A stretch of DNA of 64,000 nucleotides from Paraspadella gotoi (lineage: Eukaryota > Animalia > Chaetognatha), in NCBI GenBank assembly GCA_051294375.1, contig CM119267.1, positions 9,201,709 to 9,265,708 on the forward strand, read 5' to 3'. Below the pieces are notes generated by a model, which worked only from the letters and a program-made list of their open reading frames with translations, ran no database searches and had not been told where the DNA came from. This document shows positions 5,376 through 57,300 of the stretch, one piece after another. How positions within the stretch are numbered: position 1 is the stretch's first letter; the number at the start of each line of letters is the position of its first letter. The translations under genes were made by a program, and so were the position numbers.

Positions 5376-6322
5376 ATTTTAATTTCTCGTCGAGGAATTA
5401 GATATTAGAGTGGAGCTCTCAAGAAGTTATTTGAGTGATCAAACAAGGATATTTAGACGTTAGATAAGTACAAAAAATATTTTTATATTGTCTCGGGAAC
5501 AGAATAGTAAAATACAATATATTTGTAGTAATATGCTTATAAAATAATAAATTTTTAAAAAAAATTTAAACTTTTAATAAAGATTCAGATTTTTCATAAA
5601 AAGTTAAATCAAAAATATAAAACATTTTATCAAAAATTATGTTGTTTTCAGCATTTAAAACGGGGGGGGGGAAGGTGAAAATTTATGACTTTATGACTTT
5701 TTTCTGTAGTAGAAACTTATATATGTTAAAACGTTGGTCATTTTTTGCGGTCTAAACATTAAAATATCAAATAACATATTAACATATTTTATAAAAGTTT
5801 TTTACGGCGAATCTAAATATTTAAAAAAAAATCTTTTGAAATTTAATGATTTTATAAGGATATTACTTCTTTTAAAAAAAATTTTTTTAGCATAACAGTA
5901 TAGTATTATTTAAGGTTTTCATTGTATTTTGACTTTCTTTTTGCTATTTAAAATAGTTTAGAAATGAAACGAAAAATTCGTTGGAATAGCAATTTTATTT
6001 TTAAATTTTATTTTTAAAATTGCTATTCCAACGAATTTTTCGTTTCATCTCTAAACTATTTAAGGTTTTAAAATTTGTTAAATACATGTCAATAGGCGGC
6101 AAAAAAATCATGTTCAATCATTCAATATTTTCATCACTCCACCCTAATATATACGTATCACCTCTAAAATATTTGTATTACTCGTATGTTAATTTATTTC
6201 CAATTTGCGTTTTTCTTTTCAATTTCATATTTCCCAGGGTGGTTCTTAATTTTAATGGTCTTCAGACCATGAACCTTCGTTTTAATATTTCCATTTTTCT
6301 TTCTAGAAAAGTTATAAACGCA

Positions 6323-22015: not shown

Positions 22016-26986
<4,971 letters not shown>

Positions 26987-30498: not shown

Positions 30499-30778
30499 TA
30501 CTCGGTAGGAAGGGTAACGTAGGTGGTAGTAATTTTTTCGTGGTCGGATATAAAACTGATGGTCTGTGTACTCGGTAGGAAGGGTAACGGAGGTGGTAGG
30601 AATTTTTCCATGGTCGGATGTATAAGTGATGGTCTGTGTACTCCGTAGGAAGGGTAACGGAGGTGGTAGGAATTTTTCCATGGTCAGATGTAAAACTGAT
30701 GGTCTGTGTACTCGGTAGGAAGGGTAACGGAGGTGGTAGGAATTTTTCCGTGGTCGGATGTAAAACTGATGGTCTGTG
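30499..30778. repeat. Minisatellite, four copies of a 70-bp unit
   Basis: TACTCGGTAGGAAGGGTAACGGAGGTGGTAGGAATTTTTCC..GATGGTCTGTG recurs at 30499, 30569, 30639 and 30709. Confidence 0.95.
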
Positions 30779-31608
30779 AATACGGAGATTAGATTATTAT
30801 TTTATTTATTTGTTAAAATATTTTTTGTGTTAAATAATTAAATATAAAATCTGTTTGGGATGGGGATGTTAGTGTCGTCTTCTGGAAATAGAGGGTGCAT
30901 CTACACAACACAAGGTTAGATTAATTTCTGTTCCAGTTTTCTAATAGTTGTCGTACATCATTCCTTTTGGAAAATCATTAATAAGAATATGATGGACCAT
31001 AGTGGAAATCGGCGGTCCATTACTTGTAGAGAAATAATATTAATCTCAGGAAAAAATTATCGGATAATAATTAATATTAATTCTTGTCCAATTTTAATTT
31101 GTTTTTGAACATTTTTTTTCTTTCTCGGAACATAAACATGGGATCAACTCATTGACTTGGTTAAAATTATGTTAAAATTATGTTCGTAAGCAATTAAAAT
31201 ATGAAAATATACTGCCGTCTGTTCTACTTACCGAAGATTCCGAAAAGGGGGGAAATGTTTCGGATAATATCAAAGAAAATCTGAAAACAATTAATTAATT
31301 CCTACAAAGAGGCATTCTTTATATTTATAACTTTTCGCTCTTCTCTTCTTTACGTCTAGGTATTGACAAAATCCAACGAATTCGCGCTCGTCAGACATCG
31401 TCGGCGACAATGTCACGGAATCTCGAGACATTAACCGACTTTCCTAACGCCAGTCCCAACACGATGGATGAACCATGAATGCCAAAAATGAAATAGAAAT
31501 GTTCTCTTTGTTACAAATTTGTCAGACTTGCCCAATCAAATAAACTACCGAATTTTTCTAATTAGTCTTTGATACTTTTTGTTTTTATTCCCTTTAGACT
31601 GAAACAAG

Positions 31609-35099: not shown

Positions 35100-35218
35100 T
35101 TCATAAAATTGGTACAACCAATATAAAAATTATCCACTCATTTAATGAATAAGCTATCTTGCCCCTGACCTTGGACAGTCTTTGGTTTATTAACGCCTCC
35201 ATCACTCTTACAAGATTT
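35100..35218. repeat. Dispersed repeat, copy 3, immediately upstream of ATP5PD
   Basis: AAATTGGTACAACCAATATAAAAATTATCCA..CCCCTGACCTTGGACA..CCTCCATCACTCTTACAAGAT matches 8766-8870. Confidence 0.8.
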
Positions 35219-39524: not shown

Positions 39525-40886
39525 ATGAGGAATGTACTTTTAAGGTATACTATTCTGAAATGCCTAAGACGCTTTGAACAAAATGGAATTGTGTCTTTCG
39601 AAAAAAGACTTTTTTCTGTCGGATTCGCTCATTCGAAAAAAGAGACGGGGGCCGACTCCGACGATTTGCCTCCATTTGCTTCAGCTTCCGACTCCGTTGT
39701 GTTGGAACAGACGCATGGTGATGTCGCCTTGGTGGGAATAAACCGACCAAAGGTTCGCAACTGCGTTAACCCGGCGACTGCGCTAGCTCTAAGAGAGTCG
39801 TTAGAGCGGTTCGACCGCGATGATGGCCTCAGAACTGCGATTCTACACGGTATAGGAGGAAACTTCTGCGCCGGTTACGATCTTAAGGAACTGTCAGATG
39901 GCGATTATAAAGATCAGGTTATGGATATGGGGAGACATATGTGATGCCCGGGGTGTGAGGCATCTTCCGACAGCTGCTGCTCAGGGCTTTGGACCAACAG
40001 TGACCACCCCATGTCACTGGCGTGTTTATGCCGACACCGTCACACTTAAACGTGAGGGAATTGAAACCGGAACTCACGGTTGGTAAACGAGTACCAAGCG
40101 AATTTAGATTTCGCCACAAGCTATAAAATAGTACTTTATTGGAGATCGAAAATCTAATGATCCCTTGTTAAACTATTAATTTTGTAGGCCGTTAAAAATG
40201 GATATTTTCACTTCAGTTTTTCGACAAACTAGCTTCTGATCCATTGTTTCGGCCAATGGGTCCCACAAAGCTTTTCTTATCCAAACCGCTCATTGGTGCC
40301 ATTTCTGGTTACGCCGTCGCTGGCGGTTTGGAACTGGCACTTCTTTGCGACGTCCGGATCATCGAGGAGAACGTCGTGTTCGGCGTTTTTTGTCGCCGTT
40401 TCGGTGTTCCCCTTATCGACGGAGGGACAGTCCGTTTGTCTGCCATCGTCGGCTATGGACGTGCCATGGAAATGATTTTAACTGGGCGAGCCGTTTCTGC
40501 CCGAGAAGCACTACAGTGGGGACTCGCCAGCAGCGTAGTTTCAACTGGGACGGCGGTCGGCTGCGCGCTCAGTTTCGCCAGGTTAACACTTATAAATACG
40601 TGGATTCCGATCGCTGATCGCATTTCCATCGCATTATCCTGTTCGATCTCCCAGGTCCCTGAGCAAATTTCCCCGGGAGTGCATGTTGGCCGATAGACGT
40701 TCGCTTTTCCACGCTACATTCGAAGCTCCTTCTGTCGAGGCGGCGTTGGACTATGAATTCATCAACGGACTCCCGGTAGTGGAAAGAGAAGCCATCAAAG
40801 GAGCCCGGCGATTCGCCGACGAAAAAGTCGGAAGAGGAGCAAGTTTCGACTTGGACGGGATGAAAAGACGAAAAAACAATTCTTGA
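39525..40886 (+). CDS. Enoyl-CoA hydratase/isomerase family protein; first intron 39918-40216
   Basis: INRPKVRNCVN, GNFCAGYDLKEL, ISGYAVAGGLELALLCD, FCRRFGVPLIDGGTVRL, MEMILTGRAVSAREA. Confidence 0.9.
39920..40118 (-). mobile_element. Solo LTR of a diverged relative of the 56213 element
   Basis: On - strand begins TGTGGC and ends CCATA like the 56213 LTRs; shares (+ strand) TGTGATGCCC..GGCATCT, CAGTGA..GTCACTGGCG and GAGGGAA; flanked by AGGT/AGCT (degenerate 4-bp TSD). Confidence 0.7.
39982..40047 (-). ncRNA. Twister-ribozyme-like core (permuted, partly degenerate) in the solo LTR
   Basis: - strand: AA GTGT GA CGG TGTCGGCA TAA ACAC GC CAGTGAC-8nt-GTCACTG TTGG TCCA AAGC CCTG. P2 ACAC/GTGT and P3 are perfect; P4 and T1 are weakened. 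Confidence 0.6.
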
Positions 40887-42489: not shown

Positions 42490-44232
42490 ATGAGCTCTGG
42501 GTTGGATTCCGACATGGAGGATGAAGCTCGAGACTCCGACGAAGGCGAAGCCGAACCGATCAGGATTAAAAAGCTTAAGATCGATTCCTCACTTCGTGTG
42601 CCCATCGCTTCGTTTGAGAGGTAAACAACTAAACATCTCTGATAATGATTTTTTTTTTGGGGGGGGGGAGGGGTACCGGTAGGGTGAGTCATATGCCAAA
42701 AGTTTTTTGGATCGCAAAGAACATCTAACACAAAACGGGTGGGCCTAAAAAAATAGGTTTCCACCAATCACTACTCAAATTGATTGAACACCCTTAGCGC
42801 TACCAGCGCTTGAAGGATTTTTGGCACACCTTTCACATCAAAATTCACTGTGTCTAAAGCATAAAAGATTTTATTGTCCAACCTTATTTATCAGTTAGAA
42901 AAATCTATGGAGTTAATTCATGTCAAATTTCAAGACAAAACTACATCAAATAGCTTTACAACATCATCAGCAATCTGCTGGAGGAGGTAGAAGCCATTAT
43001 ATTGATGTCTATATCTTTTAAGTTGGGGGAGTAGCACAAAGTGTTTCTATATAGTTTTATTCACAAATAAGTGCTCTAAATGATAAAATAAGTTTTTTAA
43101 AAAAATATCAGTGTAGTCACATCCTGGAGGATTTTTTCTGTACAAAACCTATAATATACTAAAATATACACCAAATATTGTATTATAATTTCTAATATAG
43201 TATTAATAAGTTAAGCAAGATAGGGTAAAACTGTTTGATAAATTTCATCTTGATTGATCCACAACTTCTCAAAGGAGCTTCTTTTTAAACTCCTTGAATT
43301 AAATCTCCACATGCTATCAATTTGAAAAAAATAAAAATTATACTTTCAAAAATAGCTTTATTAGTTGCCAAAACACTCTGGGTTCAATGTTATTTCATTA
43401 TATTAAGAGTAACATTCTTGACATGCTCTGTAGAGGCTTCCCCAATAAGTTGAAGGATGTGGACGAAATGTTGCAGGTGACAATTTCTTTATGAAAGCCA
43501 TTCACTTTTAATTAAAAACACAATTTTGTTTTTAAAACTAAACCCCTAATCACATTGATATATTTGATTGAGATGCGCTCACATCCTTATGGATTTTTCT
43601 CGTCAGAGACTGCTTGAAGGATGACAAATATATATAAAATATTTCTATTATAATTATTTTGATGATCAAATTTGCACAAAAAAAAATCTTAAAGTATAAG
43701 GATCTCGCAAGGGTATAGTATCAAAGAAAATTAATGAAAAAGTACTATAATCTAATTTGCATATTGCAGTAAATCATAATGAAGTGGAAATTCAAACAAA
43801 AAATACTTGAATCGATATGAACAAAGAAAATGGACACACATTTCAACTTCCTCACTGCCTCATTAATGGAACTTGATAACTAGATACATTGTTAGGTAGT
43901 TAAACCATAAACCGACAAAAATAGGCAGTAAAAATCTTAAAAGAATAGGTTCGAGCCTCCCTTCAATGATAACCAAAATATTGATGCGATGATAACCAAA
44001 GGATTGATGCGATGATAACCAAAAGATTGATGCGATGATAACCAAATATTGATGCAATGATAACCAATAATTGATGCGATGATAACCAAATGATCGATGT
44101 GATGAAAACCAAATGATTGAGGCGATAATAACCAAATGGTTGATATGATGATAGTCATTCATTGATGTGATGATAATCATTCATTGATACGATGATAGTC
44201 ATTCATTGAAGCGATGATAGTCATTCATTCAA

Positions 44233-44263
<31 letters not shown>

Positions 44264-47200
44264 AGAAAGAGAATAAATCCACCAAAAATCTCGGATGTAA
44301 ATTTGGGATTTTGCATTGAGAAAAAGCGCGGAATAAATGGTGATAATAAAAGTTTTTAAAAGGAAAAAAATAATCAAAATTTTTCAAAAAACGATCACGC
44401 AAGAGATCGTACAGAGAGAGAGAGAGACAGAAGAGAAAGTCAGAGAGACAGAAAGAGAGAGAAAGAGAGAGACAGACAGAGAGAGAAAGAGAGAGAGAGA
44501 GAAAGCAGGACAGCAGCTGGAAGGCAGCTGAACAGTCACTGCAAAGCCTGAACTAGTTTTTTTAAAAGGTTCAGAAAAGGCAGCAGCTGACAAAAATAAG
44601 AAGAAAAATACATATATAATTTAAAGAAATAAAAGAAAGGAAAAAAATGTTACAATAATCTGAATTTTTCAAAAAACGAACGATCACGCAAGAGATAGTG
44701 CGATGATAGTCATTCATTGATCCGATGATAATCATTCATTGATGCAATGATAGTCATTCATTGATGCGATGATAGTCATTCACTGATGCGATGATAGTCA
44801 TTCATTGAATTAGAGAGAGAGAGAGACACAGAGAGTGTACGAACACTAGTGGGTTCGTGCGACTTCGAAATCGGGAATCTAATTTGACGCCATCGATCAA
44901 ATAAGATAGAGAGAGAGAGACAGAGAGAGAGAATGAATACACGGATACGGTCATGGGCACACAGTCCGCGGCCTATACTATATATATATATAGAGAGAGA
45001 CGGAGAGAGAGAGAGAGACAGAGAGAGAGAGACGGAGAGAGAGAGAGAGAGAGTAGTTGCCCCTCAACGGCCACGAAATCTAGGCCAAGTAAGTTATTGT
45101 ATTTTGGGATTTTGTATTGAGAAAAAAGCGCGGAATAAATGGCGATAATAAAAGTTTTTAGAAATAAAAAAATAATCAGAATTTTTCAAAAAACGAACGA
45201 TCACGCAAGAGATCGTTCAGAGAGAGAAAGACACACACAGAGAAAGACAGAGAGAGACGGAGAGAAGCGTAACATTTCTGCGTATGAGTTATTCTTCACT
45301 TTTTCTAAAATAAATCCACGAAAATCTTGGATGTAAATTGGGATTTTATATTGAGAAAAAAGCGCGGAATAAATGGCGATAATAGTTTTTAGAAGCAATA
45401 TAAAAGGAGATAGACCGACGCGGGTCTATTACCCCTCTCCTTCTCATTCACCTCCTCCTCATCCTACTCCCAATGATTCGGGGCCGCGTTCACGAGATTC
45501 AGTTCACCTTTCTCTCTCCTCCTTCTTCTTTGTTGTCTTCTTTATCGTCAGTTTTATCTTCCTCTTCGTCGTCATTTTCGTCGTCATCTATGCCGTCGTT
45601 TTAATCGTTTTCTTCCTTGTTGTTGTCGTCAGTTATTTTCTACCAATCAATCAATCAGAAAACTTACTTAGTCTTAGAAGCCATTTGCAAATTTGCAGAT
45701 TTACAGTTAGGAACACATTTAAACTGATTCACTGATTCAGACAAGAAAAGCAAAAAAAAGTGAATAAAAATTTGGGTTTTTTGTAAAAAAAAGATCTATA
45801 TATATATGTATATTTATATAAGACAAAAAAGAGAGCAATTTATTTGTTTGTCAAAAATTTTTTCAAAATAATTAAAATTTCAATTAATAAATCTTACCTT
45901 TTTTATTTAGTTTCGCGGAGAAAATAATTTAGCGTTACTGTTTTTGAATTATGTTAATATCATTTTGTTATTAAAAATAAAAAATTTAAAAAATGTAATC
46001 GCGGAAACAAAATATGTTGTTACCTACGAATATATAATATTGAAACTAATATAGTGTTATAATCATCATAATTTTTAGCAAATTTGATCATCAAAATAAT
46101 TAAATAGAAATATTTTATATATATTTGTCATCCTTCAAGCAGTCTGTACGAGAAAAATCCATAAGGATGTGAGCGCATCTCAATCAAATATATCAATGTG
46201 ATTAGGGGTTTAGTTTTAAAAACAAAATTGTGTTTTTAATTAAAAGTGAATGGCTTTCATAAAGAAATTGTCACCTGCAACATTTCGTCCACATCCTTCA
46301 ACTTATTGGGGAAGCCTCTACAGAGCATGTCAAGAATGTTACTCTTAATATAATGAAATAACATTGAACCCAGAGTGTTTTGGCAACTAATAAAGCTATT
46401 TTTGAAAGTATAATTTTTATTTTTTTCAAATTGATAGCATGTGGAGATTTAATTCAAGGATGTTTAAAAAGAAGCTCCTTTGAGAAGTTGTGGATCAATC
46501 AAGATGAAATTTATCAAACAGTTTTACCCTATCTTGCTTAACTTATTAATACTATATTAGAAATTATAATACAATATTTGGTGTATATTTTAGTATATTA
46601 TAGGTTTTGTACAGAAAAAATCCTCCAGGATGTGACTACACTGATATTTTTTTAAAAAACTTATTTTATCATTTAGAGCACTTATTTGTGAATAAAACTA
46701 TATAGAAACACTTTGTGCTACTCCCCCAACTTAAAAGATATAGACATCAATATAATGGCTTCTACCTCCTCCAGCAGATTGCTGATGATGTTGTAAAGCT
46801 ATTTGATGTAGTTTTGTCTTGAAATTTGACATGAATTAACTCCATAGATTTTTCTAACTGATAAATAAGGTTGGACAATAAAATCTTTTATGCTTTAGAC
46901 ACAGTGAATTATGATGTGAAAGGTGTGCCAAAAATCCTTCAAGCGCTGGTAGCGCTAAGGGTGTTCAATCAATTTGAGTAGTGATTGGTGGAAACCTATT
47001 TTTTTAGGCCCACCCGTTTTGTGTTAGATGTTCTTTGCGATCAGACTATTTTTCCTTACAGCCTTGGTATGCCGCTGAGTTCTAAGTTCAAAGGTGCCTC
47101 GGCGGCAGTGTTCGACGTCAAGTCCAGCTATCTCTCGTCAACTGAAACGAACATGAACCAAGTATTGGCGATGGAAATACCTATTGTAGAAAATGGCGAT

Positions 47201-54325: not shown

Positions 54326-57300
54326 ATGCCTTTTATCGTATCCTTGATGAGATCGCAGTTGTCAACGTACAACGTATATTTTTTGGTTATTCTCATGCTA
54401 TCTCATTTGATGCTGCAAATCAACCGATTCATTCTCGCTATAGTAGCTCAGCCCGTCGCTCAAGCGTTGCATTTCGGTGACCAGGCGTGCATGCGTAATA
54501 AGTCAATTGAGATAAATAACGTCAATTGGACTGACCAAGATGTGGACTCTGTTTGCCGCGGAGCAAACAATGTAAGTATGAATTCAATAAAATACTTAAC
54601 TCAGGCTTTCGATTTCTTAAGGGTATTTTATGATATGTACTAATGTCTTCTGTCAGTTTCAATTCCTTTGAACGATACCAGAAAGCTATAATACTGTGAT
54701 GTGTTGTTATCGTGTATATTTGTACTAATTTTTATCATTTACTTATACTTAATATTAATAAAAACACTTCAATAACGATATTTTTAACTTTTACTTTAAG
54801 GCTTCTGATTGTTATGACCTTGTCACTGACGAAAACGGCTTTTCTCTGTGCGCTTACGATTATTTTGGTGGTGGATTGGAATATCAAATTCTGGTGGGTC
54901 CAGTCTACATATTCGTCTTCACCTTTAGTGGAATTTTGATGGGCTTTCTTGCCGATCGTTACAATCGCAAGAACCTGCTTGCCCTTTTCCTTGCGCTCTG
55001 GTCTATCGTCATAGTACTAATGGCTTTTGTCACACAGTACTGGCAGGTTATTTCTCGTAAAAGAACTTTGTGTCATTGCCAAATTTTATCGAGGCTCTCA
55101 TTTTTTTTAGCTGCTGGTTCTTCGTCTACTGCTCGGCTTCACCCAAGCAGGGTGCGTTCCTTTTGCTTCGTCGCTGATCGCCGATATCCTGTCGGCGTCA
55201 CTGCGCGGTGCCGGGATAGCCTTCTTCGAGATCGGCGTTTACTTTGGCTTTAGCCTTGCCTTCGTCGTGGGCAACCTCGTCACTGAGGCGGATATTTTTG
55301 GCTTTGCTTGGAGACCGGCCTTCGTCGTTGCCGGGGCGCCCGGTGAGAGGCCGGAGAAAAGTTTACATGTTTCCGCCTAACTAGTAGTAATACTCTTAAC
55401 ACTGATGAGGTTTCCCCAATCCCCATATTAGGCGTTCTTCTCGCGCTTGTGATCTTGGCGACAATTCGAGAACCGGAACGAAAAACCCAGTCACTGCTCA
55501 ACGCGGATGTTGTAGGAGCAGACCCAGACCAAAATTTGGGGTGGAAAAAAACGTCGGAGCTGTTTTGCCGTCCCTTTCTTTTAGTTTTCTTTCTCGCCAG
55601 CGCCTTGAGAATGGGGGCCGGCTATTGTTTCGCATATAATAATCAAGTAAATCAGTTGTTGGAGAATGAGCCGTTTTATTTGACAAAATAACCCGTTTAT
55701 ATTTGAATGTATCATATTTATTTTTTTATTAATAGATTTATTTTGCCATGATTGGAGAGTCGGCAACCTCCATCGCTCGCTGGATGTCGTGGGTTCCTGC
55801 CGTTTCCGGTTCCATCGGTTGTCTGCTCGGCGGAATCATTTCCGACCGCGTCGCTCCACGTCTCGGCGTCGTGGGAAGAATTTGGGTCGTCGTGGCCTCT
55901 CTCATACTCGCGTCTCCTTTTGGATGTGAGTTACGAGCTATTTTTTATCTTTTCCTCAAATTAACTTTGACTATTTTGCCTTAGCGGGAGTGCTATTTCT
56001 TTCACCACCATATTGCTACCTCGCGTTGATCGGCAATTATATTCTCGGTGAGACGTTTATCGGAGTTTGTATTACTATCGTGGTCGAACTCTTTCCCGTC
56101 AGGATGCGCGCCTCAGCCGTTGGTGTTTATATTTTCGTTATTCAAAATATCGGGGGAAATATGGAAATGTTCATACCTCCTCTCAGGCAAGGACCGTTAC
56201 GAATTATGAATTTATGGCAACAGCCGGGCTGCCTGTGATGCCCATTGGGATGGGGCATCTCACTGTTGGCTTTGGGGGCTTCCGACCCTCAGTGATGCCT
56301 CCAGTCACTGGCGCGGTTACCCTAGGATGGTCTCGCTTTGCCAACGCAGAGGGAAGTCGTTAGGACTGTGGATGGAACACTACGCCTGGGATGGTGTGTT
56401 CCCCCTCTGAGCCAATGGATTTGGCTGACGGATGGTGGACGTGAGGCAGTGTGAATATACTGCCACAGGATCCCCGGGCCAAGACATCACTCAGGTTCCT
56501 CAAGCCTGAGAGGTGTCTGACAAGACTGTTACCATAGTGGGAGAGAGAGAGAGAGCGCGAGTTGTGGGGCATAGGCGTTTGTCGTAGCGTACCCCAGGGG
56601 CATAGGCGTTTGTCGTAGCGTACCCGAAGTCGGCAGGGCATAGGCGTTTGTCGTAGCGTACCCTGAGAAGGTTGCGTGTTCGATAGTAGGGCTCACCACT
56701 TATGGCAACAGCCGGGCTGCCTGTGATGCCCATTGGGATGGGGCATCTCACTGTTGGCTTTGGGGGCTTCCGACCCTCAGTGATGCCTCCAGTCACTGGC
56801 GCGGTTACCCTAGGACGGTCTCGCTTTGCCAACGCAGAGGGAAGTCGTTAGGACTGTGGATGGAACACTACGCCTGGGATGGTGTGTTCCCCTCTGAGCC
56901 AATGGATTTGGCTGACGGATGGTGGACGTGAGGCAGTGTGAATATACTGCCACAAATTAATGTTTTCTGATTGTCTGGCTTATTGATTTATCGTTTGATT
57001 GCTATACTTAATCCATTGTACAATGTTCAGGCATCTAATGCAAACTACTTATCAGTCCATGTCGACGTTTAAAAGCCTACAATATTCCTTGTTTGTAATG
57101 TACCCGGGAATGTATTGGGTCAGCGCAGCCCTGTACATCGTCACCATACTCATGTTAGCGTGCGGTTTAAGCAACGAGTTTCACGTCAACGACGATCGGT
57201 ATGAAATCATGAACATATTTTTTTCACCAAAGTTTCTTTTAAATGTGGAGATATTTTCAGAAGAGCTTGCGGAGATAACCGAATCGATCCCTTGCGGCGG

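Follow-up and report, generated by a model that had tools for sequence, protein, structure and literature searches.

A segment of 199 bp at positions 39920-40118 of the window (the whole stretch of 64,000 nucleotides of the Paraspadella gotoi genome analysed here) raises the question of whether a solo LTR can keep a twister ribozyme fold while its sequence diverges. The original prediction proposed that it does so by compensatory changes. We found that the segment is an intronic solo LTR antisense to its host gene, that it belongs to one of two families (A and B) in which twister nucleotides and pairings are conserved, and that this copy has decayed.

Our preferred reading, to which we assign a probability of roughly two in three, is that the segment is a decayed solo LTR from a second high-copy family (B) of non-coding LTR mini-retrotransposons. 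The intact LTRs of this family would carry a tRNA-like sequence followed by a type-P5-ordered twister motif with predicted self-cleavage, and the unit-length RNA would likely be circularised and copied by a Gypsy-type helper.

A solo LTR inserted at a splice donor

On the plus strand the segment starts with TATGG and finishes with GCCACA. It has 52% GC and lies within an intron that is otherwise AT-rich (29% GC in the remainder). The original prediction was right about its coordinates, length and termini, which it had likened to those of the LTR starting at 56213, and also about its intronic position, as one contig of run X9 skips the intron (299 nt, phase 0) exactly. Both flanking exons match PF00378 on the plus strand and their frames join across the splice, which identifies the host as an enoyl-CoA hydratase gene. 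The solo LTR begins at intron position 3, in antisense orientation. The following features define the locus:

39918-40216, plus strand: host intron of the enoyl-CoA hydratase gene (GT..AG skip in the X9 contig, PF00378 on both sides, joined frames)
39916-39919, no strand: left 4-bp target site, AGGT on the plus strand, containing the splice donor GT in use
40119-40122, no strand: right 4-bp target site, AGCT on the plus strand, 3/4 identical to the left one; the changed letter is the G of the duplicated donor
39920-40118, minus strand: solo LTR, a decayed member of the high-copy TRIM family B, with termini and block order as in the LTRs at 56213 and 56701 and with the read depth of a repeat

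Run X9 was taken as RNA by guess, from its spliced join. It also has an unspliced exon-LTR contig (depth 9), so its depth over repeats can derive from DNA or pre-mRNA.

The letters AGCT of the right flank recur in X2 and X5 contigs that span 40018-40290 with 0 differences. The point of insertion coincides with the splice donor AG|GT, and the duplicated copy of the donor is altered exactly at its G; if used, this copy would have put 203 nt, including a stop, into the mRNA. Loss of that G was possibly selected, and a single chance change in the target site duplication (TSD) also fits a copy so decayed. Among the contigs of three DNA runs, which drop rare variants, there was no joint of an empty insertion site. 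We dropped the idea that the LTR created the intron: the other 98 nt are AT-rich, with an acceptor of their own and an in-frame stop after the site.

Twister architecture of the solo LTR

Read on the minus strand, the blocks follow the order P2'-GA-T1'-8 nt-UAA-P2-GC-P3-P4/L4, which is a type-P5 permutation of the twister with an added P3. From 5' to 3' on that strand we assigned:

40055-40100, minus strand: tRNA-like (Pol III promoter-like) region, degenerate here; its box-B-like T arm departs from the family at 40059 and 40066
40046-40051, minus strand: site of the P5 5' arm, lacking about 10 nt of the family contigs (in all four runs depth falls and loose ends appear at 40049-40051)
40037-40045, minus strand: P2' (40045-42), GA with the putative general-base G (40041-40) and T1' (40039-37, mismatched at 40039)
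40029-40036, minus strand: 8-nt P1 segment, fully self-complementary
40020-40028, minus strand: U^AA with the predicted cleavage site (40028/40027), P2 (40025-22) and the T2 letters GC (40021-20), aligned to core positions of the Rfam twister-P1 model
39998-40019, minus strand: P3 hairpin, 7 bp
39982-39997, minus strand: P4 and L4 with the T1 and T2 partners; U.U and U.G form the outer two pairs of P4
39973-39978, minus strand: P5 3' arm, altered at 39977-39978, where 95-99% of family depth differs
39943-39964, minus strand: downstream 7-bp hairpin, common to family A

The blocks named as invariant in the original prediction, UAA (40028-26), GC (40021-20), AAGC (39989-86) and GA (40041-40), are indeed identical between A and B on the minus strand. 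The change in P2 was also described correctly: CCGC/GCGA with 3/4 pairs in family A, ACAC/GUGU with 4/4 in the solo LTR. For pseudoknot T1 the letters of the solo LTR, CCA/CGG with 2/3 pairs, were right, but the intact CGG/CCG set against them belongs to the LTR at 56701-56954; the one starting at 56213 has CGG/CCA and forms 2/3 pairs as well. Pseudoknot T2 (2 bp) is present.

Other helices are less well preserved. P4 of the solo LTR consists of two G-C pairs besides the U.U and U.G mentioned above, and P5, which has 6 bp in family A, is absent; for family B it is indicated by loose ends. Mismatches also occur in family A (C.A at the first P2 pair, A.C in P4). Pairs changed on both sides number one in P2 and one in T1 of the solo LTR, with two more in the P1 segment. 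The P3 pairing was said to be kept with a new loop. The loop does differ; the stem has the same sequence at 13/14 positions, so that P3 contributes no covariation.

The closing pair of the downstream hairpin is C-G in family A, U.G in the solo LTR and U-A (39949) in roughly half of family depth or more, a series that favours the minus strand. A plus-strand function was dropped, as the U.G and the partner positions fit the minus strand.

Minimum-energy folds gave z-scores of +0.41 (B) and -1.41 (A), neither of them significant, and P2 was omitted in both; in the predicted fold of the solo LTR, the twister helices are missing except for part of P3. ARAGORN reported 0 tRNA genes.

Relation to the complete element of family A

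The counterpart of the solo LTR in the window is a complete element:

56213-56954, minus strand: complete TRIM of family A, with LTRs at 56701-56954 (5') and 56213-56467 (3'), TSD AATT and the PBS-like TGGTGAGCCC beside the 5' LTR

Since the PBS-like motif adjoins the 56701-56954 LTR on the minus strand, that strand is the sense strand. The LTRs measure 255 and 254 bp with two differences between them, and the 4-bp TSD matches at 4/4 positions. The PBS-like motif is clear and the purine tract (PPT) short. The predicted cleavage sites lie 488 nt apart.

With a word size of 7, blastn found no link between 39920-40118 and the 56213 LTR, and global identity between A and B amounts to 133/287 columns. 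In local alignment, none of 1962 random window segments and none of 2000 shuffles scored as high as the pair A and B under any of three scoring schemes (38 with 2/-3 scoring, against maxima of 31 for window segments and 28 for shuffles). The likeness to the 56213 LTR, for which a comparison with shuffled controls had been proposed, is therefore beyond chance.

A covariance model of the three window copies retrieved no further copy within the window (next score 13.5 bits). In run X10, which comes from another organism, 0 contigs matched family A, a result that is not proof of absence. Family B is known here from the solo LTR and from read contigs, and no full family-B element, PBS or PPT is among them.

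Even this young family A element is not pristine. T1 is broken by a change at 56328 in its 3' LTR (56213-56467), and the P3 closing pair (56296, 56784) is broken in both LTRs but paired in 96-100% of family depth. The element also seems to be intronic (56166-57023), antisense to an MFS-like gene on the plus strand, judging by X9 depth on both flanks and by Pfam; antisense orientation to the host gene is thus seen in 2/2 elements of the window, too few to mean much. Loose ends beside the TATGG terminus in LTR reads are AT-rich and often finish with ATA plus one base, which suggests a target preference of the element.

Controls for the twister match

Twister-P1 was the top Rfam match in both LTR types, though a weak one: 22.5 bits and E 0.016 for B, 23.2 bits and E 0.025 for A. 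Neither reached the gathering threshold of 67.2 bits, and the match spans the 3' half of the motif. Narrow scans gave no match to the type-P5 twister (which we take to be RF02684) at E<=10, and none to the P3 type. The whole window yielded 7 Rfam matches, 0 of them ribozymes. Readings of the shared blocks as hammerhead, HDV-like, snoRNA or SRP sequences had no Rfam support and were discarded.

E-values of only 0.016-0.025 that vanish in a whole-window scan are what a chance arrangement in a GC-rich repeat might produce. The controls leave this explanation next to no chance, and it is largely refuted already by the alignment and shuffles above, the spacing, slid-partner and bacterial comparisons below and the restoration of pairs in reads. 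For the letters common to both families there are 3 occurrences in the window, as against 0 in 100 shuffles. Used as a search pattern, these letters retrieved 60 metagenome loci. P2' and T1' partners lie downstream in 45 of them, with 6 or 7 of the 7 pairs (all 7 in 38), and upstream in 0. By their predicted pairing, these 45 loci are ordinary type-P1 twisters. As the pattern retrieves real twisters with downstream partners, the window copies represent a permuted form of the same core. None of the 60 loci was related to the LTR element or P5-permuted. A viral scan gave 47 loci; 20 were scanned with Rfam and 7 had type-P1 twisters, in some cases nested close to the match and not at its position.

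Upstream partners at the observed spacing arise by chance in window sequence at rates of 2e-5 (B) and 3e-4 (A). In a bacterial control with the same fixed letters and the permuted spacing, 1/54 loci had 6/7 pairs and none combined pairing with the palindrome. Of the 72 cells in the three window copies, 87.5% pair, and 4/24 pairs are changed on both sides, against 28-49% pairing and 0-1 two-sided changes for slid partners; the 72-cell count is descriptive, as two of its three rows are nearly identical and the structure was drawn from these sequences.

Several of the metagenome contigs L060-L100 (e.g. L061, L063, L069) contain, immediately after long A-rich tracts, type-P1 twisters with P3, many of them near-identical; such an arrangement may be the sign of another mobile element.

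The state of the family compared with this copy

Contigs of four runs were placed on the locus at 80% likeness, those below it being lost, so that the resulting tables describe depth-weighted unitigs rather than aligned copies; 51 variant rows and a large number of loose ends are outside these tables, and family cover is missing for the first 24 nt at the 5' end of the LTR. In the three DNA runs summed depth over the solo LTR peaks at about 1400-2900x that of the flank. This is not a copy number; family B is nevertheless clearly abundant, with roughly a thousand copies or more. The reads contain two distinct high-copy families, in agreement with the original claim of at least two subfamilies in the genome.

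At nine positions the solo LTR differs from 92-100% of depth in all four runs, and none of these differences is compensated. They lie in T1 (40039), P4 (39996 and 39997), the P5 arm and its junction (39977 and 39978), the junction before P2' (40048) and the T arm (40059 and 40066), with 39966 in no assigned role. The family carries the pairing letter at 40039 in 98-100% of depth and those at 39996-39997 in 94-98%, and the T-arm positions of the solo LTR are off 92-99% of it. Box B has the GGTTC form in family contigs and is degenerate in the solo LTR; box A is hinted at only by loose ends of low agreement. Loose ends also point to about 10 nt missing at 40049-40051, in the P5 5' arm, and about 10 nt near 40094.

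It is worth stressing that the structure was drawn before the reads were placed, and that the reads then gave standard pairs at the broken positions of T1, P4 and P5, which amounts to a passed prediction. The three mismatched or wobble pairs of the solo LTR in T1 and P4 are standard pairs in the family majority; for two of them family A has a standard pair of another type, and for the third a mismatch. The P5 indicated for family B differs in sequence from the 6-bp P5 of family A.

These comparisons, which rest on two families, indicate that it is the family that keeps the twister fold through compensatory change, the solo LTR being a decaying relic; selection acted on the former and not on the latter. 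The central claim of the original prediction thus holds at the level of the family. It fails for this copy, in which private changes break pairs in T1, P4 and P5 and two stretches of about 10 nt are deleted. P4 and P5 had been correctly described as decayed; the T1 and P4 mismatches and the missing P5 arm correspond to standard pairs in 92-100% of family depth, which makes the case stronger than the letters of the window alone could. That selection acts on RNA structure rather than sequence was an overstatement, since the P3 stem, the catalytic core and the downstream hairpin are conserved in sequence. The support that the locus was said to lend independently to the ribozyme call is phylogenetic, coming from two related families and not from an independent origin.

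Could the copy at 39920-40118 itself be functional or domesticated, regulating the host gene or cleaving an antisense transcript? The identical sequence is found in contigs of several samples, an empty-site joint is missing from the three DNA runs, and the catalytic letters, P2, P3 and T2 are intact, while twisters tolerate several imperfections (PMC11662667, available text). We nevertheless consider this highly improbable. The nine uncompensated differences, the two deletions that take out P5 and part of the promoter-like region, and the antisense orientation to the host gene all argue against it, as does the mismatch in T1, the element described as most sensitive to mutation in the available part of PMC5113685.

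Members of the family with an intact motif, by contrast, are predicted to self-cleave at U^A, and in our estimate very probably do. According to the available text of a large assay, about 94% of natural type-P1 twister candidates cleaved, and defects in P1, P2 and P4 were tolerated better than those in the pseudoknots; this assay covered type-P1 permutes only (PMC11662667). Changes in T1 are the least tolerated in twister mutational scans, as far as the available portions report (PMC5113685, PMC11662667), and the solo LTR is therefore probably weak or dead, even though twisters tolerate several defects. Efficient cleavage by the solo LTR is unlikely. Being spliced out in antisense orientation, it should not cut the host pre-mRNA.

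The P1 palindrome and possible pairing between LTRs

Between T1' and UAA there are exactly 8 nt in both families, and their letters differ. In A as in B this 8-mer is self-complementary at 4/4 pairs, of which two are changed on both sides and two on one side. Self-complementary 8-mers occur by chance in 2% of cases in the window (for each family) and in 1/54 loci of the bacterial control. The energy model gives no hairpin and a self-duplex of -9.5 kcal/mol (B) or -11.0 kcal/mol (A). Within one molecule, a 2-bp hairpin is the most that could form, as the inner two pairs cannot be made in a hairpin.

The conservation of these inner pairs speaks for base pairing from one ribozyme to another. According to the available text of PMC7229834, hammerheads of amphibians that combine a weak helix with a palindromic loop act as dimers. 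By analogy, cleavage might take place in a dimer of the two LTR ribozymes joined through the self-complementary P1, and a monomer circle or a lone LTR would then be cut slowly; we hold this tentatively, with the odds somewhat against it. P1 is described as dispensable for twister activity in the accessible part of PMC5408937, and the palindrome therefore need not mean dimer cleavage. It could also serve RNA dimerisation for packaging.

That last option belongs to a wider alternative, in which a twister-derived but non-catalytic structure acts as a packaging, dimerisation or reverse-transcriptase signal, its palindrome resembling a retroviral dimer-initiation site. The weak P1, the P2 and P4 mismatches in family A and the missing Rfam P5 match are compatible with it, and catalysis here is a prediction. 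We regard this as quite improbable: U^AA, GA, GC/GC and L4 are all invariant between families whose surroundings blastn cannot align, and T1 covaries.

A broader scheme, rather doubtful at present, would make these elements an animal LTR retrozyme lineage of several families with a tRNA-derived promoter and a P5-permuted twister, P1 being swapped between the two LTRs of a transcript through the 8-nt palindrome. Both LTRs would then be required for cleavage, leaving solo LTRs and the monomer circle stable, and ribozyme classes would have been swapped among tRNA-box TRIMs (hammerhead in wasp Helenus-2, twister here). If true, the P1 swap would be a natural dimeric twister and give the P5 permutation a biological role.

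A proposed replication cycle

Under the preferred reading of a ribozyme-bearing LTR mini-retrotransposon, the internal tRNA-like sequence, a likely Pol III promoter, would drive a Pol III transcript in which each LTR would cleave at U^A. The released unit (488 nt in family A) would have its ends kept together by P5, P2 and T1 and would then be ligated to a circle. By analogy, we see about even chances that cleavage in both LTRs indeed leads to such a held and circularised unit. Reverse transcription would be primed by a tRNA on the PBS and carried out in trans by a Gypsy-type enzyme, following the model for plant retrozymes in the available text of PMC4918200.

The solo LTR would have arisen by LTR-LTR recombination or by direct integration, antisense, into the splice donor; circular templates of plant retrozymes can also yield solo LTRs, according to the available text (PMC4918200). 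It would have been tolerated since splicing still removes it, the promoter box and ribozyme pairs being lost afterwards.

An active twister might instead only trim linear RNA, at its 5' or 3' end or by release from read-through transcripts, with no circular intermediate, as proposed for the Perere-3 T-variants. In Schistosoma, twister variants are described as processing a non-LTR element at its 5' end (PMC8501958, available part), and the circle here is a prediction from sequence. Two considerations make us regard trimming alone as improbable. With a ribozyme in each LTR, both repeats are cut internally and lose the terminal redundancy on which strand transfer depends, a loss that plant retrozymes make good by circularisation, as their available description has it (PMC4918200); and the P5 order would leave both cut ends paired.

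Comparison with known systems

The best reading, by analogy, is that the element works like a plant LTR retrozyme in which a twister replaces the hammerhead, within a Helenus-like TRIM. As far as the available text shows, plant LTR retrozymes (Cervera et al. 2016, PMC4918200) are likewise non-autonomous LTR elements with a ribozyme in each LTR, a 4-bp TSD, a PBS and solo LTRs. They have a type III hammerhead, a plant host, a unit of about 700 nt and demonstrated circRNA (PMC4918200), whereas the elements studied here have a twister-type motif, an animal host, a tRNA-like head, a 488-nt unit (family A) and a predicted circle. The hammerhead that defines LTR retrozymes had no Rfam match in our LTRs.

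Helenus TRIMs (TRIMp3; Kojima 2024, PMC10886601), in the available part of their description, resemble our elements in TRIM size and non-coding LTR structure (complete in family A), in the tRNA-like LTR sequence with a GGTTC box B (here at the family level), in solo LTRs and in a tRNA-type PBS (a PBS-like motif in family A); family B is a candidate member. The TSD of animal Helenus is 4 bp (PMC10886601), and it matches at 4/4 positions in family A and at 3/4 in the solo LTR. The LTRs of Helenus-2_SyJa and Helenus-2_SyUm start with TGTGG, like ours (PMC10886601, available supplement); on the sense strand ours finish with TA, those of Helenus with CA. The word twister has 0 occurrences in the available text of that paper and 'ribozyme' appears in a reference title only; in its supplement 0/14 'aagccc' places had a twister context, although line breaks or other letters could hide one (PMC10886601).

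By eye, a hammerhead core (CTGATGA ... GAAA) follows the tRNA box in the LTRs of Helenus-2_SyJa and Helenus-2_SyUm in the available supplement (PMC10886601). The core looks like type III with complementary loops, and the available text passes it without remark (PMC10886601). An animal LTR retrozyme may be hidden in these published consensus LTRs.

With the type-P5 twister (PMC5408937, available part) our elements share, at the level of the families, termini in P5 (paired in A, indicated for B), a closed P1 side, P2, P4, T1, T2 and the conserved core; they differ from it in the added P3, the 8-nt self-complementary stretch as P1, the missing Rfam P5 match and the LTR location. The Schistosoma T-variant twisters of Perere-3 also belong to an animal retroelement and have a weak or variable P1, but this is an autonomous non-LTR element with type-P1 order and one ribozyme at its 5' end, as described in the available part of PMC8501958. 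Animal non-LTR retrozymes have a stunted, palindrome-capped helix and cleave better as dimers, which for our LTRs holds by analogy only; they differ in having hammerheads in tandem repeats without LTR, PBS or PPT (PMC7229834, available text).

Reviews, in their available text, describe animal retrozymes as free of LTRs, PBS and PPT, and LTR retrozymes from plants with hammerheads (PMC7761336, PMC7229834). In the accessible parts of the open literature, including PMC7761336, PMC6765202 and PMC10085705, we found no description of a twister-bearing LTR or TRIM element; subscription papers, the lists of the original twister paper, Repbase or bioRxiv supplements could hold one.

The locus at 39920-40118 alone is an ordinary relic. 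Its value lies in comparative evidence and as an example of solo LTR decay inside a splice donor, and it adds a two-family, read-supported covariation check together with the relic status of the solo copy. To our knowledge, hardly any biological role has been assigned to the twister in eukaryotes. With two diverged and very abundant families in which compensatory change keeps the twister pairings, the idea of a twister-based LTR retrozyme in animals can be tested directly, as can, in a simple way, dimeric twister cleavage through the covarying palindromic P1.

Other features of the window

The window is gene-dense and intron-poor from 667 to 62615, with long single-exon ORFs (ADAR-like, acyl-CoA ligase, GalNAc-transferase-like, INTS15, UBA3 and Nudix). 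The closest named UBA3 relatives, from a brachiopod and an annelid, reach 71%. An element of about 4.3 kb has terminal inverted repeats of about 900 bp that are 99-100% identical (42710-43603 and 46148-47042). Inside it (42710-47042) there are 22-23 bp tandem repeats, which also occur inverted at 25969-26630, and it resembles a foldback-like DNA transposon. AT-rich long hairpins at 5951-6061 and 23727-23876 are MITE-like, and the Rfam miRNA matches there are below threshold. A dispersed short repeat, also MITE-like, pairs 22909-22963 with 35119-35173, and a tandem repeat with a 70 bp unit occupies 30499-30848.
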